Shown here in pieces: positions 37,761 through 58,531 of a stretch of 64,000 nt of DNA. Both the position numbers and the translations under genes were made by a program. The number at the start of each line of letters is the position of its first letter. Positions within the stretch are counted from its first letter, which is position 1. This stretch comes from a virus. The stretch is from the IMG/VR virus record IMGVR_UViG_3300045988_134824, positions 72,744 to 136,743 of that record. One strand, written 5' to 3'. The notes under the pieces are model-generated. The model made no database searches and was not told the origin of the DNA. It was given only the letters and a program-made list of their open reading frames with translations.

Positions 37761-39368
37761 ATGGCAGCTAAGGATAACACAATGGTAATTACTAGAAAGA
37801 TTGCTTTGATTCCTGTCGTAAGTGAGCGAAAAGAATGGAAGAAAAGAATTAATGCTTTCTTAGAAAAAGATTTTCCAAGGAAAATTGAAGCAAAGAAGAA
37901 GCAGATTAAGAATACAAGCAAGCCAGAAAATAAAGATGGGTACAAGCTGCAACTCGCAGAATTAGAAAAACAATACGAAGATTTTAAAGAAAATAGAATC
38001 GAAGAATATACTCAGAAAATGGTTAACGATTATACATATGGTCTTGTGAGAGATGCAATGGAGAGTGAAGCAAGACGAAAGAATTACATTTTGTCTTACA
38101 TATACACAAAAATGGTACAGGATGGAGTTGGATATATGCCAACATTGAAAGATAAATATACATGGATTAAAGAAAATATTAATGTCGCATATAGACGAAA
38201 AGGAAGTAATAAAGGGAGTATCTTTGATGACGTTGACATTGATAATCCATTAGGTGGATACGGAACATGCTTCTCTCAGATATTAACAAGTAAGATCAAA
38301 GATTTGGTTAAGCAGGGATTGTTAGACGGCAAAGTGTCAATTCCAAGTTTTAAAATTGACTCGCCATTTACAATTGCAAAAGCATATTTTGATCTATATC
38401 ACGAATACGAAGATATAGCAGAATTAAAGAAACGTATTTATGATTCAGATTGCAAACTGTATTGTGGATTAGGTAACAAAGGTATTCCGACCATTGCAAA
38501 TTTCAAAGTAAATATCGGACACAAAGGAAATAGAGACGAGTTAATTTCTACATTGTTAAGAATATTTACTGGAGAATACGAGATTTGTGGAAGTACAATG
38601 CAGATTTCTAAAACAAAAATTATTTTAAATTTATCAATTAGAATTCCTAAAACACAGCTTGAATTAGACGAGGACACTGTAGTTGGTGTCGATCTTGGGG
38701 TTGCAATTCCAGCGGTATGTTCTTTGAATAATAACAAATATAAGAGAGAGTATATTGGTAGTAGTGACGATTTTATTAGAATGAGAACGAAATTACAGCA
38801 CGAGAAACAGCAGTTACAGAAAGCATTAAAGATGTCAAAAGGTGGACATGGAAGAAAAAGAAAGTTGTTGGCATTAGAAAGATGTAAAAAGAAAGAACAT
38901 AACTTTGTTGAAACATACTGCCACAAAGTAAGCAAGAAAGTAGTTGATTTTGCGGTCAAGAATAAAGCGAAATATATCAATGTAGAAAATCTTTCGGGAT
39001 ATGATTCAAGTAAATTCATTTTAAGAAATTGGAGTTTTTACAAACTTCAGCAATACATAGAATATAAAGCTGCGAAATATGGTATTGAAGTTAGAAAAAT
39101 AAATCCATCATTCACATCTCAGGTATGTAGTTTCTGTGGACATTGGGAAGATGGGCAGAGGAAAGATCAAGCAACATTTGTTTGTGGTAATCCTAATTGT
39201 GAAAGCCATAAATTACATATGGTAAATGCAGACTATAATGCATCAAGAAATATTGCAATGTCAACATTATTTACGAGCGATAAATTCCAATTTTGTAAAA
39301 AGACGATGCAAAATGCGGCGGAGTATTACGGTATCCAACTAGATAATGAAGATCAATTAGCAGCGTAA
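37761..39368 (+). CDS. TnpB-like / Cas12-like (type V) RuvC nuclease, 535 aa
   Basis: RuvC-I VGVDLGVAIPAVCS (D ~38691). RuvC-II KYINVENLSG (E ~38984). Zn finger CSFCGH..CGNPNC. RuvC-III HMVNADYNASRNIA (D ~39231). Immediately followed by CRISPR-like arrays. Confidence 0.85.
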   Translation: MAAKDNTMVITRKIALIPVVSERKEWKKRINAFLEKDFPRKIEAKKKQIKNTSKPENKDGYKLQLAELEKQYEDFKENRIEEYTQKMVNDYTYGLVRDAMESEARRKNYILSYIYTKMVQDGVGYMPTLKDKYTWIKENINVAYRRKGSNKGSIFDDVDIDNPLGGYGTCFSQILTSKIKDLVKQGLLDGKVSIPSFKIDSPFTIAKAYFDLYHEYEDIAELKKRIYDSDCKLYCGLGNKGIPTIANFKVNIGHKGNRDELISTLLRIFTGEYEICGSTMQISKTKIILNLSIRIPKTQLELDEDTVVGVDLGVAIPAVCSLNNNKYKREYIGSSDDFIRMRTKLQHEKQQLQKALKMSKGGHGRKRKLLALERCKKKEHNFVETYCHKVSKKVVDFAVKNKAKYINVENLSGYDSSKFILRNWSFYKLQQYIEYKAAKYGIEVRKINPSFTSQVCSFCGHWEDGQRKDQATFVCGNPNCESHKLHMVNADYNASRNIAMSTLFTSDKFQFCKKTMQNAAEYYGIQLDNEDQLAA

Positions 39369-39530
39369 ATTATATGAAAATATATGGCATGTTTTGGAGG
39401 GAGTTCGATGCTCCCTCAGCCATAAAATAATATGACTATGCCAAGAGAGAGGAAAAAAATTCACTCACTAAAATTTGTGTAATTGAGCAAAACATAAAGT
39501 TTTGTATTACATACATAATTAAGATTTGAG
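39369..39530 (+). ncRNA. conserved unit U1 (leader / tracrRNA- or omega-RNA-like candidate) preceding array A; contains strong hairpin 39384-39424
   Basis: shares ordered blocks tatggcatgttttg(g)ag .. atgaYtatgccaaRag .. actcactaaaa .. atttgag with U2 and U3; ttgtgtaatt is complementary to repeat segment aattacaca. Confidence 0.4.
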
Positions 39531-39632
39531 GTTTGAGAACTATTGAAAATTACACAGATACAAAACATCCAGATAAATATTTTATTGACGTTGTCAGTTT
39601 GAGAACTATTGAAAATTACATAAAATGTATGG
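39531..39632 (+). CRISPR. mini-array A: 36-nt repeat gtttgagaactattgaaaattacacagatacaaaac (39531-39566), 30-nt spacer (39567-39596), distal repeat degenerate after nt 25 (39597-39632)
   Basis: read directly. Confidence 0.7.
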
Positions 39633-39770
39633 CATGTTTTGAGAAATTTTATATCCAATGTAAATTTTCTGATCATAAGAAATATGATTATGCCAAAAGT
39701 GAGATTTAAAAATAATACTCACTAAAACCTATGTGATAAAGTATCAAAATTGGACAAAGATGAAATTGAG
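39633..39770 (+). ncRNA. conserved unit U2 preceding array B
   Basis: contains stem AGTGAGA-tttaaaaataa-TACTCACT; segments acctatgt and gtatcaaa are complementary to the B repeat variant (acataggt, tttgatac). Confidence 0.4.
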
Positions 39771-39938
39771 GTTTGATACCTATTAAAAATTACATAGGTA
39801 CAAAACATGTTTTGATCTTCAGCACCTGATACAAAGTTTGATACCTATTAAAAATTACATAGGTACAAAACACAATCGGCATCCGATCTTTTCGCTGCCT
39901 GAGTTTGATACCTATTAAAAATTACACAAAGTGTGTGG
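39771..39938 (+). CRISPR. mini-array B: repeat gtttgatacctattaaaaattacataggtacaaaac x2 (39771-39806, 39836-39871), spacers 29 nt (39807-39835) and 31 nt (39872-39902), third repeat degenerate after nt 24 (39903-39938)
   Basis: read directly. Confidence 0.7.
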
Positions 39939-40037
39939 TGTGTTCTGGAGATTTTATCTCGTCTATCAAATAGGTAGATACGCCAAAAGTGAGACATGAA
40001 TGTACTCACTAAAATCTATGTTAGTTGAATATTTGAG
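39939..40037 (+). ncRNA. conserved unit U3 preceding array C
   Basis: stem AGTGAGA-catgaatg-TACTCACT has the same stem as U2 with a different loop; ends ..atttgag like U1/U2. Confidence 0.35.
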
Positions 40038-40139
40038 GTTTAAGACCTATCAAATTTAACACAGGTACAGAACTCTGACGTGCTTCATTTTATTCGATCG
40101 TGCGTAAAAGACCTATCAAATTTAACAAAATCAAAAGGA
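40038..40139 (+). CRISPR. mini-array C: repeat gtttaagacctatcaaatttaacacaggtacagaac (40038-40073), 30-nt spacer (40074-40103), degenerate terminal repeat gtaaaagacctatcaaatttaacaaaatc.. (40104-40139)
   Basis: read directly. Confidence 0.6.
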
Positions 40140-40152
40140 AATTAAACGAAAA

Positions 40153-40320
40153 ATGAAATCAAGACAGCAACGTGAACAGGAAATAAAACGATTCTTTGAT
40201 CGGCTGAGTCCCAGTGAATTGGACAGGCTGTTAGAAAGAAATGGAATTAATGATAAAGAGTCTGATGAGGCTCTTGCATATAGAATTATTAAAGAAGAAA
40301 TTGAGAAAGGAGAGATATAA
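40153..40320 (+). CDS. small charged protein (55 aa), not in ORF track
   Basis: ATG 40153; MKSRQQREQEIKRFFDRLSPSELDRLLERNGINDKESDEALAYRIIKEEIEKGEI. Confidence 0.3.
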   Translation: MKSRQQREQEIKRFFDRLSPSELDRLLERNGINDKESDEALAYRIIKEEIEKGEI

Positions 40321-40625
40321 TGAACAACTTCTTATATATTGAATCACGGGAAGAAGAGAATACATCCCTCGATTCTAAACGTGTTTTATTGAATGAAGAA
40401 AATTACAAACATATTATTTCATCATTAGATCATTATCCACCGACGGCAGACGAAGTTAAGAAAGCAATTTGTATTTTGACTGGACGATTGATCTACAGAA
40501 GCGTTTGGAATATGGAATCTGATATTGATAGTTTAAATATGAGTTTATCACCGCCAAAAGAAATGACGGTTGCAGAAATTGAAAAGGAACTTGGTTATAA
40601 AGTTAAGATTGTAAAGGAGAAATAA
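40320..40625 (+). CDS. hypothetical protein (101 aa)
   Basis: ORF with RBS. Confidence 0.45.
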   Translation: MNNFLYIESREEENTSLDSKRVLLNEENYKHIISSLDHYPPTADEVKKAICILTGRLIYRSVWNMESDIDSLNMSLSPPKEMTVAEIEKELGYKVKIVKEK

Positions 40626-40936
40626 TGCCAATGGCAAAAAAGAAACAAGGAATGTCGTTTGAAATGATGATGCAAAATATGGAAATTAATCCAAGGCAAT
40701 TGTATCGTCGTAGTTCGTGGAAGAAGACACGAACAACTTATGATTATGTGTTTATGATGTGCGAAGAAGAATTAAATGAGATTATTCCATTTGATAAAAA
40801 ATATAAAATGAAACCACTCTTATGTAGAGACCAAAATGGAGTTATAACATTGGGATGGTTGCCTACACAAGAGGATATTTTCGCAAATGATTGGGTTGAG
40901 CAAGGATGGGATTTTAACAGTAAAAGGAAGAGGTGA
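40625..40936 (+). CDS. hypothetical protein (103 aa)
   Basis: ORF. Confidence 0.45.
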   Translation: MPMAKKKQGMSFEMMMQNMEINPRQLYRRSSWKKTRTTYDYVFMMCEEELNEIIPFDKKYKMKPLLCRDQNGVITLGWLPTQEDIFANDWVEQGWDFNSKRKR

Positions 40937-40944
40937 ATAATTAA

Positions 40945-41244
40945 TTGAATTTTATAAAAGCAATGATCGCAATAAAAAAAGACAAAACTACTATAAGAAG
41001 AGGCATTTGGGGAAAGGAAAAGTATTTGAAAATTTATTCGTCAGAATTAACTAATGTTTATTTTGAGTGTAATGATATGGGTGAATATAAGCCAGATTCA
41101 ATTATTTTTTTATTTGATAAAGAAAACGCAGAAGTTTGGATACCTCTTGCGGAAGATGTATATGCAGATGACTGGGAAATATATGTTGAATCGGTTAAAA
41201 AGCCAAATCAATCAAAAGCAAAGGTGAAGGAGAAAGAAGAATGA
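40945..41244 (+). CDS. hypothetical protein (99 aa)
   Basis: ORF. Confidence 0.4.
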   Translation: MNFIKAMIAIKKDKTTIRRGIWGKEKYLKIYSSELTNVYFECNDMGEYKPDSIIFLFDKENAEVWIPLAEDVYADDWEIYVESVKKPNQSKAKVKEKEE

Positions 41245-41654
41245 AAGTGTTTTTAGGCGGAACATGCTCTGGATGGAAGTGGAGAGACCAGCTACAGAAG
41301 ATGTTGGATTGTGATTATTATAATCCAATCGTAAAAAATTGGAGTGAAGAAGACCGACTGCGGGAAGTCAAGGAAAGAGAAGAATCTGACTATGTTCTGT
41401 ATGGCATTACGAATGGTATTAAAGGAGTATACAGTATTGCAGAAGTAGTTGATGATTCTCATAAGCGACCAGATAAAGTGATCTTTCTTAATCTCTATCA
41501 GGAACAAAAGAATAAAGAATCTAAGCAGATGAGCCACAGTTTAAAAGCAGTCGAAAATTTATTGAAAGAAAATCGTATTAAAGTATATTCTGGCGTACAT
41601 GCTATGCAGGATGTTGCAGATTTTCTTAACTTAATGAATAAACGAAAGGGGTAA
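41241..41654 (+). CDS. nucleoside 2-deoxyribosyltransferase-like protein (paralog 1)
   Basis: MKVFLGGTCSGWKWRDQL N-terminal pattern and overall similarity to 45890 ORF. Confidence 0.4.
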   Translation: MKVFLGGTCSGWKWRDQLQKMLDCDYYNPIVKNWSEEDRLREVKEREESDYVLYGITNGIKGVYSIAEVVDDSHKRPDKVIFLNLYQEQKNKESKQMSHSLKAVENLLKENRIKVYSGVHAMQDVADFLNLMNKRKG

Positions 41655-41660
41655 AGAAGA

Positions 41661-42614
41661 ATGAAATGTTTTTATCATGTTGATCAGGACGGCATCGTAT
41701 CTGGTTTCTATGTCAGAAAAGCTTGCGAACAGCGAGGTTTAGAGTTTAAACCAGAAGACTTCCGAAAAATTAATTACGGCATGAAATTCCCGTTTCATGA
41801 CATTGAGCAGGATGAATTTGTGTTTATTGTAGACTACAGTATTGAGCCAGAAGAGATGTGGCAGTTGCTCAGTATTACAAAGAATGTATTTTGGATCGAC
41901 CATCATCAGTCTACGATTGAAGCGTATAAAGATTTCAAGTGTGATGTAAAAGGAATCAGAATTACTGGAGCGGGTATTTCAGGAGCGAATTTGACATGGT
42001 TATATTTTAAATATATGTGTGATGAAAATTGGGAGCAAATTGAGAGGACGGATGAGAAAAATGTAAAAAGATTACTCAATATATATAAATATAAAGCAGA
42101 TTATCCAAAACTGGCAGAATATACAGCCATGTGGGATACATTTTATTTTGGTGAAACGTCAAAACAATTCGTAAAAGCATTTCACTATGCATTTGAATCG
42201 TATGATTTTGATGCGTTAAGTCCATTGCTAAACACGTTAAATAAAGATCAAGGAATTTATGAAGCAGCAAAAATTATTGGTGATATGATAGCAGATGGCT
42301 TATCAATTATTGAGTATTTAGCAGCAAATGCAGAACAATATCTTAGAGCATATGGTTTTGAAACCATATTTGAGGGACATAAAGTCTATGCAATCAACCG
42401 AGCATTAATCAATTATGATTTCTTTGAATCTATTGATGCTTCTAAATATGATATGTTCATTGGTTTTTCGTTCAATGGAAGTATGTGGGAATATCAGTTG
42501 CGATCCGCAGAACAGGATAAAGTAAATGTGTATGAGCTTGCTGTGAAATATGGTGGCGGTGGTCATCCAAATGCAGCTGGGTTCAGAAGTGATAAGTATG
42601 TGTTAGGAGTGTGA
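41661..42614 (+). CDS. DHH-DHHA1 phosphoesterase (NrnA-like nanoRNase / pAp phosphatase family)
   Basis: motif I HVDQDGIVS, motif III WIDHHQS, DHHA1 GGGGHPNAAGF. Confidence 0.7.
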   Translation: MKCFYHVDQDGIVSGFYVRKACEQRGLEFKPEDFRKINYGMKFPFHDIEQDEFVFIVDYSIEPEEMWQLLSITKNVFWIDHHQSTIEAYKDFKCDVKGIRITGAGISGANLTWLYFKYMCDENWEQIERTDEKNVKRLLNIYKYKADYPKLAEYTAMWDTFYFGETSKQFVKAFHYAFESYDFDALSPLLNTLNKDQGIYEAAKIIGDMIADGLSIIEYLAANAEQYLRAYGFETIFEGHKVYAINRALINYDFFESIDASKYDMFIGFSFNGSMWEYQLRSAEQDKVNVYELAVKYGGGGHPNAAGFRSDKYVLGV

Positions 42615-42617
42615 TGT

Positions 42618-43403
42618 ATGTCAAGGAAAAATACAAGAGAATTTGAACTTGCTTTTAGTAAAAATAGAGACCCAGATTGGGAAGCCGATGTAGAGATTTA
42701 TGGAAAAAGGGTTTTAAAAACAGTACGTGGTATTTGTCTTGGTGATGAATGGACAGAAATTAATTCATTGAGAAACAAGGATCATATTGAGTTAGCGGAG
42801 ATGTTTTGTAATTTTGACGATCATAATCCACATTTTAATCTGAGCCCTCAATATGTTTTATTGGATAAGTTTTCTATAACATCTCCTGCGATATTGTGTA
42901 GTGATGAAATAGTTATGAAAAATGGCAAAGTTTTGAATGTTGATAATATATCAGCAAATCTATCAGGCAAAAATGAAGTATACAAGATTTATTCAAATAC
43001 AAAATATGATGATTATACATATTATGATGAATCAGAAAATTTAGTATTTGAATTAGCATCAAAAGATGTTGATAAGATAATCCGATTTATGAGAGATTTT
43101 ATGGATGAATTACGTGATGCTAAATTAACAAAGTATAGAAATAGTAATTTTTTATGGAGACTATTTAACACTCTTGATATGCCACATTTTAAACAAACAT
43201 ATTCCATGAATGATTTGAAAAAATATACAAACACATTTAGATCTGAGGTTTGTGGTCAACTAAAAGAAACTATTCCTAATTTTAAATATACTGGAGTTCC
43301 AATGGGCGGGTATATTGAAAGATATTTTGAATTAAGTTATGTAGAGGAAGTACAAAAATTCATTAAAGAACAGGAGGCAAAGAGATGTGAAGAAACTAAA
43401 TGA
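42618..43403 (+). CDS. hypothetical protein (261 aa)
   Basis: ORF. Confidence 0.45.
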   Translation: MSRKNTREFELAFSKNRDPDWEADVEIYGKRVLKTVRGICLGDEWTEINSLRNKDHIELAEMFCNFDDHNPHFNLSPQYVLLDKFSITSPAILCSDEIVMKNGKVLNVDNISANLSGKNEVYKIYSNTKYDDYTYYDESENLVFELASKDVDKIIRFMRDFMDELRDAKLTKYRNSNFLWRLFNTLDMPHFKQTYSMNDLKKYTNTFRSEVCGQLKETIPNFKYTGVPMGGYIERYFELSYVEEVQKFIKEQEAKRCEETK

Positions 43404-43920
43404 TGAACAGCGAAGGCTGATTGAAGATAATTACTCTTTGATTTGGCATTTACATGAAAAATATTTTACAAAGTTTACAGATTTTGATACATATATGGAT
43501 CTTGGTCGTATGGCAATTTGTAAAGCAGCATTAAAATGGGACGAGTCTAAAGGAACTTTTGGTACATATCTCTTCTTGGTATTACGTTCAGAAGTGAATC
43601 AATATTATACAAAATGGCACAGACTAACAGAAAAAATGAATAGGAATGCTGAATCGTTAGATACACCATTGGCAGGATACGAACCAGAAGATGATATTAC
43701 AATCGGAACAACACTGATGAGTAAAGATAATGTAGAGGATGAGGTGCTTACAAAGGTACATTTTCAAAATGAGTTTGATAAATTGGCACCGAGAAATAAA
43801 AAGATTATCACGTTAAAGCAGAAAGGTTTAACACAAAGACAAATTGCAAGTCAGCTTGGAATCACTCATCAGTGGGTTAGTCAAAATATTGTACAGTTTA
43901 AGAAAGCATTATGTGGATAA
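43387..43920 (+). CDS. sigma-70 family RNA polymerase sigma factor (regions 2 and 4)
   Basis: GTYLFLVLRSEVNQYY region-2-like; C-terminal LTQRQIASQLGITHQWVSQNIVQFKKAL region-4 HTH. Confidence 0.65.
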   Translation: MKKLNDEQRRLIEDNYSLIWHLHEKYFTKFTDFDTYMDLGRMAICKAALKWDESKGTFGTYLFLVLRSEVNQYYTKWHRLTEKMNRNAESLDTPLAGYEPEDDITIGTTLMSKDNVEDEVLTKVHFQNEFDKLAPRNKKIITLKQKGLTQRQIASQLGITHQWVSQNIVQFKKALCG

Positions 43921-43933
43921 AAGAGGTGAGATC

Positions 43934-44764
43934 ATGACAATTGAAGAAGTAAAAGATTACATAAACTCGTCTCCAGAGTATGACTTTTTACGAGATTATC
44001 CTCACAAAATCGCTTTTCTCACGCTAGGTGGAAGTTATGCCTACGGAACAAATACAGAGGATTCTGATATTGATTTACGTGGTGTTTTCCTTAGTGATAA
44101 AAGAGAGATTTTGTTGAATAATAGTATGAAATTAGTAGACACAAGGAAAGATACCGATACTACAATGTATGCATTGAAGAAATATGTTGGTCTATGCGCT
44201 AAAGGAAATCCTACGGCATTAGAGTTGTTGTATAATCGTCCAGAATGCTATTTATATGTATCCGATATTGGTATGGAGTTGATTAAAAATCGAGACATGT
44301 TTTTATCAAAGAAAATTTGGTATGCATTTAACGGATATTCACAGGCTTTAGAAGAACAAACAATCAGATTGTATGACGAAACTATCTTAACAGAAGATCA
44401 GATTAATTTAGCAAAGAAGAAGGTTTGTAAGGCGATGATGCATGTAATTAGAGTAATACACAATGGAACAGCGTTATTGAAAACATCTACAATGCAAACT
44501 TACAACTTCGAGCTTCTCAGGCAAAGTTTATTATTACTGAGAGACGGAGCTTATTGTAGTAGTATGGTGATCAAAGGAAGAGCGACTGATGATATAATCA
44601 AACGATTTGTTCCATCTAATGATTTTGGGGAGCTATTTGATTGCTTTTATCAAGCTTTTGAAAACGCATTTAAAACTACAACTTTACCAGATGAACCAGA
44701 CTGGGATCGTATTAATGATTTTCTGGCAACAACAAATGAACGAATTGTGAGAGGAATGGTGTAA
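43934..44764 (+). CDS. Pol-beta-superfamily nucleotidyltransferase (track ORF starts 43844; ATG 43934 preferred)
   Basis: GGSYAYGTNTEDSDIDLRGVF = G-S-x9-D-x-D nucleotidyltransferase active-site motif. Confidence 0.55.
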   Translation: MTIEEVKDYINSSPEYDFLRDYPHKIAFLTLGGSYAYGTNTEDSDIDLRGVFLSDKREILLNNSMKLVDTRKDTDTTMYALKKYVGLCAKGNPTALELLYNRPECYLYVSDIGMELIKNRDMFLSKKIWYAFNGYSQALEEQTIRLYDETILTEDQINLAKKKVCKAMMHVIRVIHNGTALLKTSTMQTYNFELLRQSLLLLRDGAYCSSMVIKGRATDDIIKRFVPSNDFGELFDCFYQAFENAFKTTTLPDEPDWDRINDFLATTNERIVRGMV

Positions 44765-44766
44765 AA

Positions 44767-45036
44767 ATGTATGTAAAGATTGGAGACGAAATTGCTTTTC
44801 ATCCTGGCGAATGCTTAGAAGAATTTGTTGAATCTTGCAGGATGACTCCTTATCAGCTTGCGAGTAAAATTGGCATAGATGTTGATTATGTGCAAGGGCT
44901 GATTGACGGATTACAAAGTGTTACAAAAGAATTTGCGAAAACAATGGCAGACCATTATGGGTTTGCTGATGATGGTCAGTTCTGGTTAAATTTGCAAGAA
45001 ACATTTGATAAGAAAGTAGATGATAGAGATGTTTGA
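44767..45036 (+). CDS. HigA-like XRE-HTH protein (antitoxin-like)
   Basis: HPGECLEEFVESCRMTPYQLASKIGIDVDYVQGLIDGLQSVTKEFAKTMADHYGFADDGQFWLNLQETFD matches HigA antidote family pattern. Confidence 0.55.
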   Translation: MYVKIGDEIAFHPGECLEEFVESCRMTPYQLASKIGIDVDYVQGLIDGLQSVTKEFAKTMADHYGFADDGQFWLNLQETFDKKVDDRDV

Positions 45037-45562
45037 ATTAATAAAACAACCACGTTCTGATAACGATAAATGTACTAAATATGATGTTGTGCTTGATAAA
45101 GATTATACTGTAGAAGAATTTATTGATGCGATTGCAGATGGAAGAAATGGAACGCATGGTCAAATCACAATAAAAAATGATAAAGAAGCCATTGAATCAT
45201 TTGTCTATAATATCGAGAGTATTGATTATAGACATTGTAAACTTCAAAATGCTGAAGAAAAAATTAAACAAGTATGGGCAGATGGTAGCTGGTTAAAAAT
45301 TAATTATACTATCTTACTTGAAAACAAACAGGAAACACAAAAAGGTGCGCTCAGATTTATTGTTAAGAAGCCAAATGGGGAAGAATCAGTGGTGGTTATT
45401 TTTAAGAACAAATCCGATGGCACATATTCATTTGTTAATTTGACAAAAGAGCATATTTGTTCATGTAAATTTAAAACAATTGAGGAAGCCATTCAGGATA
45501 TGAATGATCGCTTAAGAAAAGGATTGATTGAGTCCTATATTGTGAAAGGAGAAAGAAAATAA
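45020..45562 (+). CDS. hypothetical protein (180 aa)
   Basis: ORF. Confidence 0.45.
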   Translation: MIEMFELIKQPRSDNDKCTKYDVVLDKDYTVEEFIDAIADGRNGTHGQITIKNDKEAIESFVYNIESIDYRHCKLQNAEEKIKQVWADGSWLKINYTILLENKQETQKGALRFIVKKPNGEESVVVIFKNKSDGTYSFVNLTKEHICSCKFKTIEEAIQDMNDRLRKGLIESYIVKGERK

Positions 45563-45900
45563 TGGATATACATATTGGAGATTTTTGGCAGAACAAATGT
45601 AATCCAAAAGTAATTCAACATGTAGTTAATTTTTCATTTAGAATGGGTGGATTTCCAAGTAGTAAAGATATGCTACTGATCTGTGAAGAATTTCATTATA
45701 CAAAGATAGGTGAGGATTCTGCCTCTGTTAAAGAAGATTCCAGATTCTTCACACATATTACAGTGGATAATTTTAAAAAGATGAATCAATGTATTCTAAG
45801 TGCTGAGAGGATTATGAAAGATACTCAGGCATTTAAAACAGATAAAGATATTTTGGATTATTTAACAAAGAAAGTGGAGGAGAAATTAAATGCAAAATAA
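45562..45900 (+). CDS. hypothetical protein (112 aa)
   Basis: ORF. Confidence 0.4.
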   Translation: MDIHIGDFWQNKCNPKVIQHVVNFSFRMGGFPSSKDMLLICEEFHYTKIGEDSASVKEDSRFFTHITVDNFKKMNQCILSAERIMKDTQAFKTDKDILDYLTKKVEEKLNAK

Positions 45901-46363
45901 TGTATTTCAGATTTATCTTGCAGGCGGTATGCAGGATTTATCATTTGAAGAGCAGAATACTTGGAGAGAAAGAATTTGCAATCAAATTATTGCTATGCGT
46001 AGAATACTTAATGTTAATATGAAAGAAGTCAACATTATTAACCCCGTTGATTATTACAATTTTCAAACAGAGTTACATGATACAGAAAAAGAAGTAATGA
46101 GATTTGATACAAATTTTGTTAGAAATAGTGATCTTGTTGTGGTAAATGCGAATGATCCGAAGAGCATTGGTACATCTATGGAGATTGCAATTGCATATGA
46201 ACGTCATATTCCTGTACTGATTTTGAATACAGAAAAGAAAAGATTGCATGCTTGGTGGGTGCAAATGTCTGACAAGATATTTGACGATGAGAAAAAATTA
46301 TGTACATATATATATGACTTTTATCTCAGGATGAATCATAGTAGTATTCGAGCATGGGTGTAA
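45890..46363 (+). CDS. nucleoside 2-deoxyribosyltransferase-like protein (paralog 2)
   Basis: IYLAGG..QNTWRE...VVVNANDPKSIGTSMEIAIAYERHIPVLIL matches Nuc_deoxyrib_tr family core. Confidence 0.55.
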   Translation: MQNNVFQIYLAGGMQDLSFEEQNTWRERICNQIIAMRRILNVNMKEVNIINPVDYYNFQTELHDTEKEVMRFDTNFVRNSDLVVVNANDPKSIGTSMEIAIAYERHIPVLILNTEKKRLHAWWVQMSDKIFDDEKKLCTYIYDFYLRMNHSSIRAWV

Positions 46364-46524
46364 ATGCAATGATATAAAATAGGAATTTGAGGCAAAATGA
46401 AAGGAGTTGAATCACTATCACGGCAGAGAAACAAGGCAAGTTTATTATTTTCCATCTGGATGATGGTAAAACTTGTAAATATGATTTATCAAATGGTGAT
46501 TGCTATGGCAAAAGTGGTAAGAAA

Positions 46525-56782: not shown

Positions 56783-58531
56783 GTGCCAGAAATTTTAAGA
56801 AATAGAGGGATTGATGATTATGAAACGTATTTGAACCTTGATGATAGCGTAATTCAAGATTATGCCGATTTAGAGGGTATCAAAAATGCAGTAAATACAA
56901 CGATTTTTGCACTTAAAAATGGACATAAAATCGGTATTTTAATTGACGAGGACGTAGACGGATTTTGCTCAGCTTCAATGGTATATATGTACTTAAATCG
57001 CATTAATAATGAACTTTATGACAGCAAGAGTAACATTTGTTACTTATTGCATAAAAAAGCAAAAGCTCACGGATTAAGTGAAGATATTACTATACCTGAA
57101 GACGTAAAACTTTTAATAATTCCAGATGCAGGCACCAACGATGTAACACAGTGTACTGAACTTGTAAGTCGTGGCGTACAGATTGTAATTCTTGATCACC
57201 ATGAAAAAGAAGAATCTGAAATTAAAATGCCAGAGGAAGTTGTAATTGTAAATAACCAGTGCAGTCCACACTATAAGAACAAAGACTTATGTGGGGCAGG
57301 CGTTGTTTATAGATTTTTGCAAGCAATGGATGACGAATTATGGATCAATTATGCTGATGATTATTTAGATTTATGTGCATTAGCGAATATCGGTGATGTC
57401 ATGGATATGAGATCATTTGAGACACGTCGTTTAGTGGATAAAGGGATTCAGAATCTTCAGAATAAATGCTTCAAAGCGCTGATCAATGCACAAGACTATT
57501 CAATGCACAGTATTGTTAATATCCATAATGTTCAGTGGTATATCGTTCCAATTATCAATGGTATGGTACGATTTGGTTCTTTGAAAGATAAAGAATTAGT
57601 TTTTAGAGCATTTATTGAAGACTATGAGGTATTTGACTATAAGAAAAGAGCAACAAAAAACAACCCTGCGGAAGTAATCAAAGAGAATATTTACGATCGT
57701 GCCGCTCGATTATGCAAAAATGCTAAAGGCAAACAGGATCGTCAAAAGAAAAAGATGGTTCCGATTATTATGAAAGAGGCAGAAAAAGATAAAGATAGTA
57801 AGATTACTATTCTTGATGTTACAGAAACATTAGATAGCAGTTTGACAGGATTGGTTGCCATTAAGATTGCTGAAGATATGAACAGACCATGTTTGTTATT
57901 ACGAAAACATATTAATCCAGAAACAGGATTAGTAGAAATGAGTGGTAGTGCAAGAAATGTAGACCATAGCCCGATTGATAGTTTGAAAGATGTGATATCC
58001 GAAACAAATTCATTTTTATGGGCAAAAGGTCACGCCAATGCATTTGGATGTTCGACAGATAATATCTCTGGAGCACTCACAGAATTAAACGACAAGCTGA
58101 AAGATATTAAATATGATTCAACTTATAGAGTTGATTTCATTGTAGATGCTTGTAGATTAGAGTTTGAACTACTACAGGAAATGTCTAAATTGGATGATAT
58201 TCGCGGGCAGGGCATTGATGATCCGATGATTGCTGTCGAGAATATCACATTAAATAAGGAAGAAATTAATGTTGTTGGTAAGAAAATGGATACAATGCAA
58301 TTCAAGATTAATGATATTCCATGCGTGATGTTTAGATGTAATGAAAAAAATAAGATTTATGATTGGATTATGAATGATTTTTCTGACGAAGGCACAGTTA
58401 CATTTGAATTAGTAGGAACTGCACAGACTAATATCTTTAACGGAATTAGACAATATCAAATTGCGGTTGATGATATTAATGTTCTGAGCATTACAACAGA
58501 TGAAGAATTAGACGAAGATATTTGGGATTGA
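56783..58531 (+). CDS. RecJ-like DHH-family single-strand DNA exonuclease (GTG start)
   Basis: DEDVDGFCS (motif I), IILDHHE (DHH), GHANAFG (DHHA1); 582 aa. Confidence 0.65.
   Translation: MPEILRNRGIDDYETYLNLDDSVIQDYADLEGIKNAVNTTIFALKNGHKIGILIDEDVDGFCSASMVYMYLNRINNELYDSKSNICYLLHKKAKAHGLSEDITIPEDVKLLIIPDAGTNDVTQCTELVSRGVQIVILDHHEKEESEIKMPEEVVIVNNQCSPHYKNKDLCGAGVVYRFLQAMDDELWINYADDYLDLCALANIGDVMDMRSFETRRLVDKGIQNLQNKCFKALINAQDYSMHSIVNIHNVQWYIVPIINGMVRFGSLKDKELVFRAFIEDYEVFDYKKRATKNNPAEVIKENIYDRAARLCKNAKGKQDRQKKKMVPIIMKEAEKDKDSKITILDVTETLDSSLTGLVAIKIAEDMNRPCLLLRKHINPETGLVEMSGSARNVDHSPIDSLKDVISETNSFLWAKGHANAFGCSTDNISGALTELNDKLKDIKYDSTYRVDFIVDACRLEFELLQEMSKLDDIRGQGIDDPMIAVENITLNKEEINVVGKKMDTMQFKINDIPCVMFRCNEKNKIYDWIMNDFSDEGTVTFELVGTAQTNIFNGIRQYQIAVDDINVLSITTDEELDEDIWD

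Follow-up and report, generated by a model that had tools for sequence, protein, structure and literature searches.

The DNA considered here is a 64,000-nucleotide (nt) stretch of a viral genome (positions 72,744 to 136,743 of IMG/VR record IMGVR_UViG_3300045988_134824), henceforth the window, and the subject is a single gene at positions 41661-42614 that encodes a DHH-DHHA1 phosphoesterase. This DHH gene is a real and intact phage gene, and in divergent lineages it is linked to genes of RNA repair, foremost that of the nucleotidyltransferase RlaP. With a probability of roughly 0.5, its product (the DHH protein) is read as an RNA-end-processing enzyme of a phage tRNA/RNA-repair module used in counter-defence, and not as an enzyme acting primarily on signalling nucleotides. 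The elements of the gene and of its active site are as follows (aa, amino acids).

41645-41651, + strand: Shine-Dalgarno-like AAAGGGG, 9 nt 5' of the ATG of the DHH gene, as read from the sequence
41661-42614, + strand: DHH-DHHA1 phosphoesterase gene, an ATG-started open reading frame (ORF) of 317 aa, 37 kDa, isoelectric point (pI) 5.0
41676-41693, + strand: DHH motif I, HVDQDG (aa 6-11), with the metal ligands H6, D8 and D10
41826-41840, + strand: DHH motif II, IVDYS (D58)
41898-41906, + strand: DHH motif III, D80-H81-H82
42132-42143, + strand: DHH motif IV, WDTF (D159)
42495-42584, + strand: DHHA1 substrate-binding elements, QLRS (R281) and GGGGHPNAAGF (aa 298-308, nt 42552-42584)

The motifs HVDQDG, DHH and GGGGHPNAAGF, which the original prediction had described as intact in a protein of 317 aa, are all located in this ORF. 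In an alignment of 35 homologues that reaches down to 40% identity, H6, D10, D58, D80, H81, H82, D159 and G298-H302 are invariant, and D8 and R281 are conserved at a level of at least 90%. Behind the DHH domain (approximately aa 1-195) come a long linker helix (aa 199-231) and then DHHA1 in a minimal form (aa 232-317); a C-terminal extension is lacking, as 15 residues separate the GGGGH motif from the end of the protein. The AlphaFold model of the protein is confident (pLDDT of 90.6) and predicts the two-lobed DHH fold. Moreover, the ratio of nonsynonymous to synonymous substitution rates is 0.08-0.19 against relatives at 82-96% identity, and the gene is under purifying selection. On its motifs, the DHH protein is predicted to be an active, metal-dependent phosphoesterase.

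The phage origin of the gene follows from copies of 99% identity that occur on IMG/VR viral contigs of approximately 140-167 kb, and the window itself encodes phage sigma factors along with DnaE, RecJ and a Toprim protein that resembles a primase; the source is a gut phage with a genome of roughly 160 kb. The motifs and the viral-contig copies thus bear out the earlier description of a phage-encoded, stand-alone, two-domain enzyme with an intact active site, and its distinctness from the RecJ-like protein of the same phage holds as well, BLASTP between the two giving no significant match. On one sister contig of 99% identity (locus L020, 10001-10954), the DHH gene carries two in-frame stops at the positions of Q126 and E277, which could reflect a pseudogene, a sequencing error or recoding.

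The genomic context of the gene was compared across approximately 120 DHH-family loci drawn from IMG/VR, species genomes and metagenome assemblies, in which ORFs were called, hidden Markov models of neighbouring families were built and these families were mapped for each DHH lineage, their names being the Pfam annotations delivered with the loci. In the window, RlaP starts 1.3 kb downstream of the DHH gene, and in 32 of 34 loci of the window's lineage it lies 1.9-2.3 kb downstream. Nine or more other lineages, with DHH proteins that share approximately 40-60% identity among themselves, likewise have RlaP within 7 kb of DHH. The gene orders differ among these lineages; for instance, RlaP-(X)-CCA-adding enzyme-DHH occurs in L002, L052, L053, L054, L057, L059, L074, L087, L089, L100, L125 and L127 (X is described below), Thg1-RlaP-x-DHH in L124, RlaP-x-DHH with a KTI12/AAA_33 kinase, YqeY and Thg1 nearby in L129, RlaP-DHH followed by a kinase, Metallophos and T4-Rnl1 ligase unit in L085, RtcB-x-DHH in L056, and RlaP-X-CCA-RtcB with DHH further on in L126. 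Genes for PTH2 and Metallophos proteins recur near DHH, and arrays of tRNA genes lie 2-9 kb from it in L050, L051, L063, L076-78 and L093 and in 19 of the 20 loci of one lineage. When the DHH proteins are clustered at 70% identity, 18 of 38 clusters have RlaP, a CCA-adding enzyme, Thg1, RtcB, a Pnkp-type ligase or tRNA genes within 7 kb, and the clusters that have no such feature are mostly distant cellular homologues. An RNA-repair module centred on RlaP is therefore linked to the DHH gene in a conserved manner across divergent lineages.

The same linkage is seen from the reverse direction, in 80 IMG/VR loci selected only by similarity to the CCA-adding enzyme (the best 80 of at least 548). 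A DHH gene is present in 47 of them and lies directly downstream of the CCA gene in all 47, at a distance of -16 to +118 nt, with the overlaps of 7-16 nt being typical of translational coupling; RlaP is located upstream in 58 of the 80. Where DHH is lacking, its slot is sometimes filled by a Metallophos phosphoesterase or a Pnkp-type kinase-phosphatase-ligase. The DHH gene thus shares an operon slot, that of a phosphoesterase or nuclease adjoining nucleotidyltransferases and ligases, with known end-healing enzymes of RNA repair (e.g., the Metallophos or HAD phosphatases of T4 and Clostridium Pnkp, or RNase T/PH beside a CCA-adding enzyme in the turnover of tRNA ends), although its fold is unrelated to the calcineurin-like, HAD, DEDD or PH folds of these enzymes. 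The linkage is kept through several gene orders, which argues for a functional tie even though the counts are inflated by shared ancestry.

Published biochemistry is compatible with such a role. RlaP adds one or two nucleoside monophosphates (NMPs) only to RNA ends that carry a 3'-OH and rejects 3'-phosphorylated RNAs, and its authors left open how ends acquire the form that the remaining repair steps require (PMC12776372). The restoration of tRNA tails is the task of CCA-adding enzymes and that of 5' ends the task of Thg1-like enzymes (PMC7824862), and Cas12a3, a host immune nuclease, cuts the 3' tails of tRNAs up to the discriminator base (PMC12851939). Furthermore, the characterised proteins of the NrnB group of DHH enzymes (COG2404) degrade RNA from the 3' end (PMC12709177). 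From the 3'-OH requirement of RlaP, the 3'-end degradation by NrnB and the attack of Cas12a3 on tRNA tails, a trimming or unblocking of 3' ends is therefore proposed for the DHH protein.

In the proposed scheme, whose RNA or tRNA-end substrate, reaction polarity and order of steps are all putative, host ribotoxins or immunity that targets tRNA tails would damage tRNAs, and the DHH enzyme would trim or unblock the single-stranded 3' end. Such an action may consist of the 3'->5' trimming of nucleotides that are damaged, mis-added or surplus, of the removal of a 3'-phosphate-type block, or of both, and would leave a clean 3'-OH to which RlaP could then add back one or two nucleotides. Further repair enzymes would subsequently act in related phages: the CCA-adding enzyme encoded next to DHH would renew the CCA tail, Thg1-like enzymes would restore the 5' ends, and ligases (RtcB or Pnkp-type) would seal breaks. 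A simple 3'-phosphatase substitute for Pnkp was also considered and is weakened by the co-occurrence of DHH and Metallophos genes: because a separate Metallophos phosphoesterase adjoins DHH in several lineages, the DHH enzyme is not a simple replacement for it, and nucleolytic trimming is favoured over a pure 3'-phosphatase.

Host attacks on tRNA acceptor ends also include those of MenT/AbiE-type nucleotidyltransferase toxins and the 3'-pyrophosphorylation by CapRel-type proteins. A more specific version of the proposal would cast the DHH clade as the missing trimming or unblocking nuclease of phage tRNA 3'-tail repair, acting with RlaP and the CCA-adding enzyme (and sometimes a Thg1-like enzyme for the 5' end) against immunity that cuts, extends or chemically blocks acceptor ends; stated so narrowly, the idea is tentative and on balance rather unlikely.

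Several observations weigh against a role in RNA-end processing. Many of the compared loci come from related gut phages of approximately 150 kb, so their counts are not phylogenetically independent, and neither the substrate nor the polarity of the clade can be read from its sequence. In the window, RlaP and DHH are two genes apart and DHH adjoins no repair partner; a CCA-adding enzyme, Thg1, a ligase and a tRNA gene were all sought in the 64 kb and none was found, approximately 100 kb of the genome lying outside, and none of the best 80 CCA-adding-enzyme loci of the IMG/VR profile scan is on a contig of the window's lineage. The Metallophos gene beside DHH in several lineages speaks against the 3'-phosphatase version in particular. 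Accessory and counter-defence genes of phages cluster in general, and sponge-type genes neighbour DHH too, with an Acb2/Tad1-hairpin gene directly downstream of it in L125, as do genes for NAD salvage, Macro and SIR2 proteins. Finally, the acidic pI of 5.0 and the absent C-terminal extension would suit an enzyme of short oligonucleotides as well as one of tRNA tails.

The family placement of the protein bears on what else it may do. Both Pfam domains are scored below their gathering scores, DHH (PF01368) with 20.7 bits against 28.1 and DHHA1 (PF02272) with 21.5 bits against 25.9; the assignment to the superfamily consequently rests on the motifs and the fold, not on Pfam, and the DHH protein is a sequence-divergent member of the DHH/DHHA1 superfamily. 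A full-length match is obtained with phrog_4771, 'DHH phosphoesterase' (E=1.2e-34, 121 bits, aa 3-312). The NCBIfam NrnA equivalog NF053633 is matched with 15.8 bits against a cutoff of 350 (E=0.0049, only aa 263-307), and the archaeal RecJ model NF053576, which is the best NCBIfam match and yet a weak one, with 22.9 bits against 360 (E=3.3e-5), too low for membership at the level of sequence. Matches to NrnA-type proteins in the Protein Data Bank (PDB) are limited to the GGGGH segment, even with a profile search; this segment aligns with the same motif in NrnA, TM1595 and Rv2837c. The term 'NrnA-like' of the original prediction is hence right for the size and architecture of the protein and wrong for its family, given the sub-cutoff NrnA score, the PDB matches confined to GGGGH and the full-length match to phrog_4771.

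The clade is large and mainly viral. A word-indexed search returned 448 homologues at E<=1e-3, and an exhaustive search at E<=1e-30 gave 2,116 clusters at 50% identity; IMG/VR contains at least 405 relatives, against 38 in 185,579 species genomes (one genome each). Most of these 38 belong to Clostridia (Lachnospiraceae, Clostridium, Ruminococcus), and Methanobacterium has more distant copies. The kind of protein is already known and catalogued. A near-identity DNA search of positions 40000-46500 against a collection of sequenced phages found nothing, and tblastn against INPHARED gave only six weak matches of 26-28% identity, with no close isolated relative. The kin within phrog_4771 are viral DHH phosphohydrolases (e.g., of Erwinia phage PhiEaH1, Pseudomonas phage PaBG, Ralstonia phage RP12, Klosneuvirus and Marseillevirus), and BFVD models of such jumbo-phage and giant-virus proteins superpose over the whole length at a TM score of 0.65-0.72 and an identity of 16-20%; unlike these members, the subfamily of the window belongs to uncultivated gut phages whose hosts are probably Clostridia. 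Domain fusions were uninformative as hints to function, the longer homologues having unannotated extensions or a GIY-YIG/NUMOD homing endonuclease.

In comparisons of structure, the highest scores were those of the DHH domain of Pyrococcus furiosus PF0399 (5yh1, 16.7), RecJ-Cdc45 of Methanothermobacter thermautotrophicus (7bhi, 16.0), RecJ2 of Methanocaldococcus jannaschii (7ykv, 15.1) and an archaeal PAP phosphatase (8a8k, 14.5), followed by NrnA (11.9) and GdpP (9.0); the structural matches also include the 'NrnB' of Bacillus phage AR9. The archaeal RecJ-like nucleases have approximately 430-445 aa and extra domains, in contrast to the 317-aa core of the phage protein, while the PAP phosphatase has the same 317 aa; all of them are cellular, with roles in replication and repair or in sulfur metabolism, unlike the phage protein. 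NrnA, Pde2 and CnpB (COG0618) resemble it in their two-domain architecture and length (approximately 310-340 aa), yet only about 30-130 residues of NrnA align with it in sequence. NrnA has pAp 3'-phosphatase activity, and its hallmark is the 5'->3' degradation of RNA of 2-5 nt together with the hydrolysis of pAp. GdpP-type phosphodiesterases of cyclic di-AMP (c-di-AMP) carry N-terminal transmembrane, PAS and degenerate GGDEF modules, all of which the phage protein lacks.

The alternative that survives best, unlikely as it is, is a general nanoRNase or pAp phosphatase, which would finish RNA fragments of 2-5 nt or pAp and feed NMPs to phage synthesis with no specific role in repair. The architecture and size fit stand-alone nanoRNases, and the automatic name given by JGI to an identical protein, as well as to P0015 and P0071, is 'oligoribonuclease NrnB/cAMP/cGMP phosphodiesterase (DHH superfamily)', COG2404. 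NrnB proteins (B. subtilis YngD and homologues in H. pylori and Bacillus) share with the phage protein the stand-alone DHH and DHHA1 domains and the DHH and GGGH motifs; the NrnB criterion of Myers et al. 2025 combines a COG2404 assignment with the presence of the DHH domain and of the GGGH motif (PMC12709177). In clade A of NrnB, the chain continues C-terminally of DHHA1 for more than 100 aa in a conserved extension of positive charge, which the phage protein lacks, whereas clades B and C are without a long extension, as is the phage protein, and its absence there goes with a preference for short RNA (PMC12709177). The acidity of the protein and the nucleoside 2-deoxyribosyltransferase (NDT)-like genes that flank the region are likewise compatible with a nanoRNase. 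However, the near-obligate position right after the CCA gene (47 of 47) and the recurrent linkage to RlaP, Thg1, RtcB and ligases would remain unexplained. Bacillota hosts, moreover, normally carry nanoRNases of their own. The phage clade is mainly viral and linked to RlaP, the CCA-adding enzyme and Thg1, a context that the available passages of the NrnB paper do not describe (PMC12709177).

Somewhat less credible, and improbable overall, is a counter-defence phosphodiesterase, one of the two roles put forward in the original prediction, that would hydrolyse immune messengers or their linear products, such as c-di-AMP, the cyclic oligoadenylates cA3/cA4/cA6 or the cyclic GMP-AMP (cGAMP)-type signals of the cyclic-oligonucleotide-based antiphage signalling system (CBASS), and thereby silence CBASS, type III CRISPR or related effectors. 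This idea is not new for phage DHH proteins: viral DHH phosphohydrolases were predicted to be cyclic-nucleotide phosphodiesterases by Iyer et al. 2021, because the superfamily includes enzymes that degrade such signals, namely GdpP, Pde2, CnpB and the cA4-degrading enzyme of Sulfolobus (PMC7824862). Its local support comes from two Tad2-like genes upstream of DHH in the window, which may act as sponges of Thoeris or CBASS signals, and from the hairpin gene directly after DHH in L125. Nonetheless, the Tad2-like pair occurs in 18 of 35 loci of the window's lineage and in no other DHH lineage, and in some close relatives the NDT-like gene between the pair and DHH is missing, the offsets of the pair differing among relatives; the pair is made up of variable accessory neighbours, not conserved partners, while the partners conserved across lineages, which often overlap DHH, are RNA-repair enzymes. 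Furthermore, the three characterised NrnB/COG2404 proteins leave c-di-AMP uncleaved (PMC12709177), PADLOC gave no match for the DHH protein or for most of its neighbours, and no report of signal degradation by a phage DHH protein was found in the literature searched.

Very unlikely is a maturation enzyme for the phage's own tRNAs, which would remove the 3' trailer ahead of CCA addition and repair no immune damage. The tRNA arrays that several lineages have 2-9 kb from DHH and the direct coupling to the CCA gene are in keeping with it, but the 64-kb window has no tRNA gene, the RlaP-CCA-DHH loci L052-L057, L074, L087, L089 and L100 have none within +/-10 kb, and RlaP, RtcB, Pnkp-type ligases and PTH2 are enzymes of repair or rescue, not of maturation. 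The least probable function is that of a single-stranded DNA (ssDNA) or RNA-primer exonuclease for phage replication or recombination, a minimal RecJ/GAN-like enzyme, which fits the structural neighbours, the weak match to the archaeal RecJ model, the annotation of Brevundimonas jumbo-phage homologues as ssDNA exonucleases and the position of DHH just upstream of the replication module in L004 and L123, but is made less plausible by the full RecJ with an OB domain that the phage already has beside its primase and DnaE, by the absence from the 317-aa core of the OB-fold or extra nucleic-acid-binding domains that RecJ exonucleases add to theirs, and by a linkage to replication genes that is not conserved whereas that to RNA repair is.

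Phage DHH phosphoesterases have so far been assumed, on no tests, to destroy cyclic-nucleotide immune signals, and the gene neighbourhoods point elsewhere, to RNA-end processing inside tRNA-repair operons. A consistent and often translationally coupled tie between the viral DHH clade and the genes for RlaP, Thg1 and the CCA-adding enzyme is unreported in the literature searched, one key RNA-repair survey aside. If RNA-end processing is indeed the role, a new fold would join the RNA-repair toolkit, and the DHH enzyme would be a candidate answer to the RlaP problem of making damaged ends fit for nucleotide addition and ligation, as well as a candidate phage counter-measure against the newly found immunity that attacks tRNA tails. 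Under the narrower reading as the nuclease of tRNA 3'-tail repair, RNA-end proofreading would form a new enzymatic class of anti-defence, distinct from sponges and from signal-degrading phosphodiesterases. In any case, caution is advisable with the default annotation of viral DHH proteins as 'NrnA' or 'cyclic-nucleotide PDE' (phosphodiesterase).

The genes between approximately 40.1 and 47.6 kb of the window are tightly packed and co-directional, in the order Tad2-like pair, NDT-like, DHH, 261-aa ORF, sigma factor, RlaP, HigA-like, two unknown ORFs, NDT and PcfJ. These genes, and two located farther away, are listed below.

31286-32746: SPFH/flotillin protein
40625-40936 and 40945-41244, + strand: two tandem Tad2-like ORFs (PF11195, E=3.8e-8 and 1.3e-11)
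41241-41654, + strand: NDT-like protein of 137 aa directly upstream of DHH (PF15891, E=3e-6, below the gathering score)
42618-43403, + strand: 261-aa ORF, lineage-specific, after a gap of 4 nt from DHH
43387-43920, + strand: phage sigma factor of 177 aa between DHH and RlaP (Sigma70_r4 and r2; phrog_351, E=1.5e-24)
43934-44764, + strand: RlaP-family RNA-repair nucleotidyltransferase, 276 aa from its ATG (PF10127, E=4.6e-21); a TTG-started ORF begins at 43844
44767-45036: HigA-like antitoxin-type helix-turn-helix protein directly after RlaP
45890-46363: NDT-like protein of 157 aa
46525-47559: PcfJ-like protein
56783-58531: RecJ-like gene with DHH and RecJ_OB domains, adjoining primase and DnaE

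A scan of the window for promoters and terminators gave counts that do not exceed those of shuffled controls, and operon boundaries cannot be called from it. The 261-aa ORF has no match in Pfam, PHROG, NCBIfam or PADLOC searches and was found by jackhmmer only in lineages 0 and 1; it was considered as a hidden Thg1 or as the conserved X protein and rejected in both capacities, having no similarity to X, no profile match and a lineage-restricted distribution. The two NDT-like proteins (137 and 157 aa) flank the DHH-RlaP segment, and YpsA-type SLOG proteins are similarly placed in L087 and L050; nucleotide sensing, nucleotide sponging and base exchange are possibilities for the flanking proteins. 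Lachnospiraceae bacterium A4 (L087) likewise has a PcfJ-like protein beside its DHH module, and Band_7 proteins neighbour DHH in L004 and L123.

Two further observations concern the relatives. Protein X, of 312-365 aa and without a Pfam match, separates RlaP from the CCA-adding enzyme in many phages and in regions that resemble prophages (L002, 5701-6642; L087, 7678-8634; L123, 1352-2449; L126, 423-1391; L127, 4678-5616); it is absent from the window and is likely a further component of RNA repair. In L124 (9475-14837) and L129 (8270-12612), a set of NAD-salvage genes stands directly after the RlaP-DHH pair and comprises isochorismatase/PncA-like, PRPP-synthase-like, NAMPT and NAD synthase genes, with NADAR in addition in L129. 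L124 adds PTH2 and SIR2, and L129 has Thg1 just after the set. The arrangement in these two loci points to a counter-defence island directed at NAD depletion and tRNA damage alike.

Upstream of the Tad2-like pair, at 37761-40140 of the window, a TnpB/Cas12f-like protein of 535 aa is encoded (PF07282, E=3.5e-19; OrfB_IS605), and the gene is followed by three short repeat-spacer units that resemble mini CRISPR arrays. The repeats are approximately 24-43 nt long at a spacing of approximately 66 nt (39526/39592, 39766/39831/39902 and 40042/40108), and a conserved 'ACTCACTAAAA' element precedes each unit. The locus is possibly a compact Cas12-type system carried by the phage, or else a TnpB accompanied by copies of its omega-RNA, and the TnpB-like gene, being present in only about one third of the sister phages, is mobile or variable.

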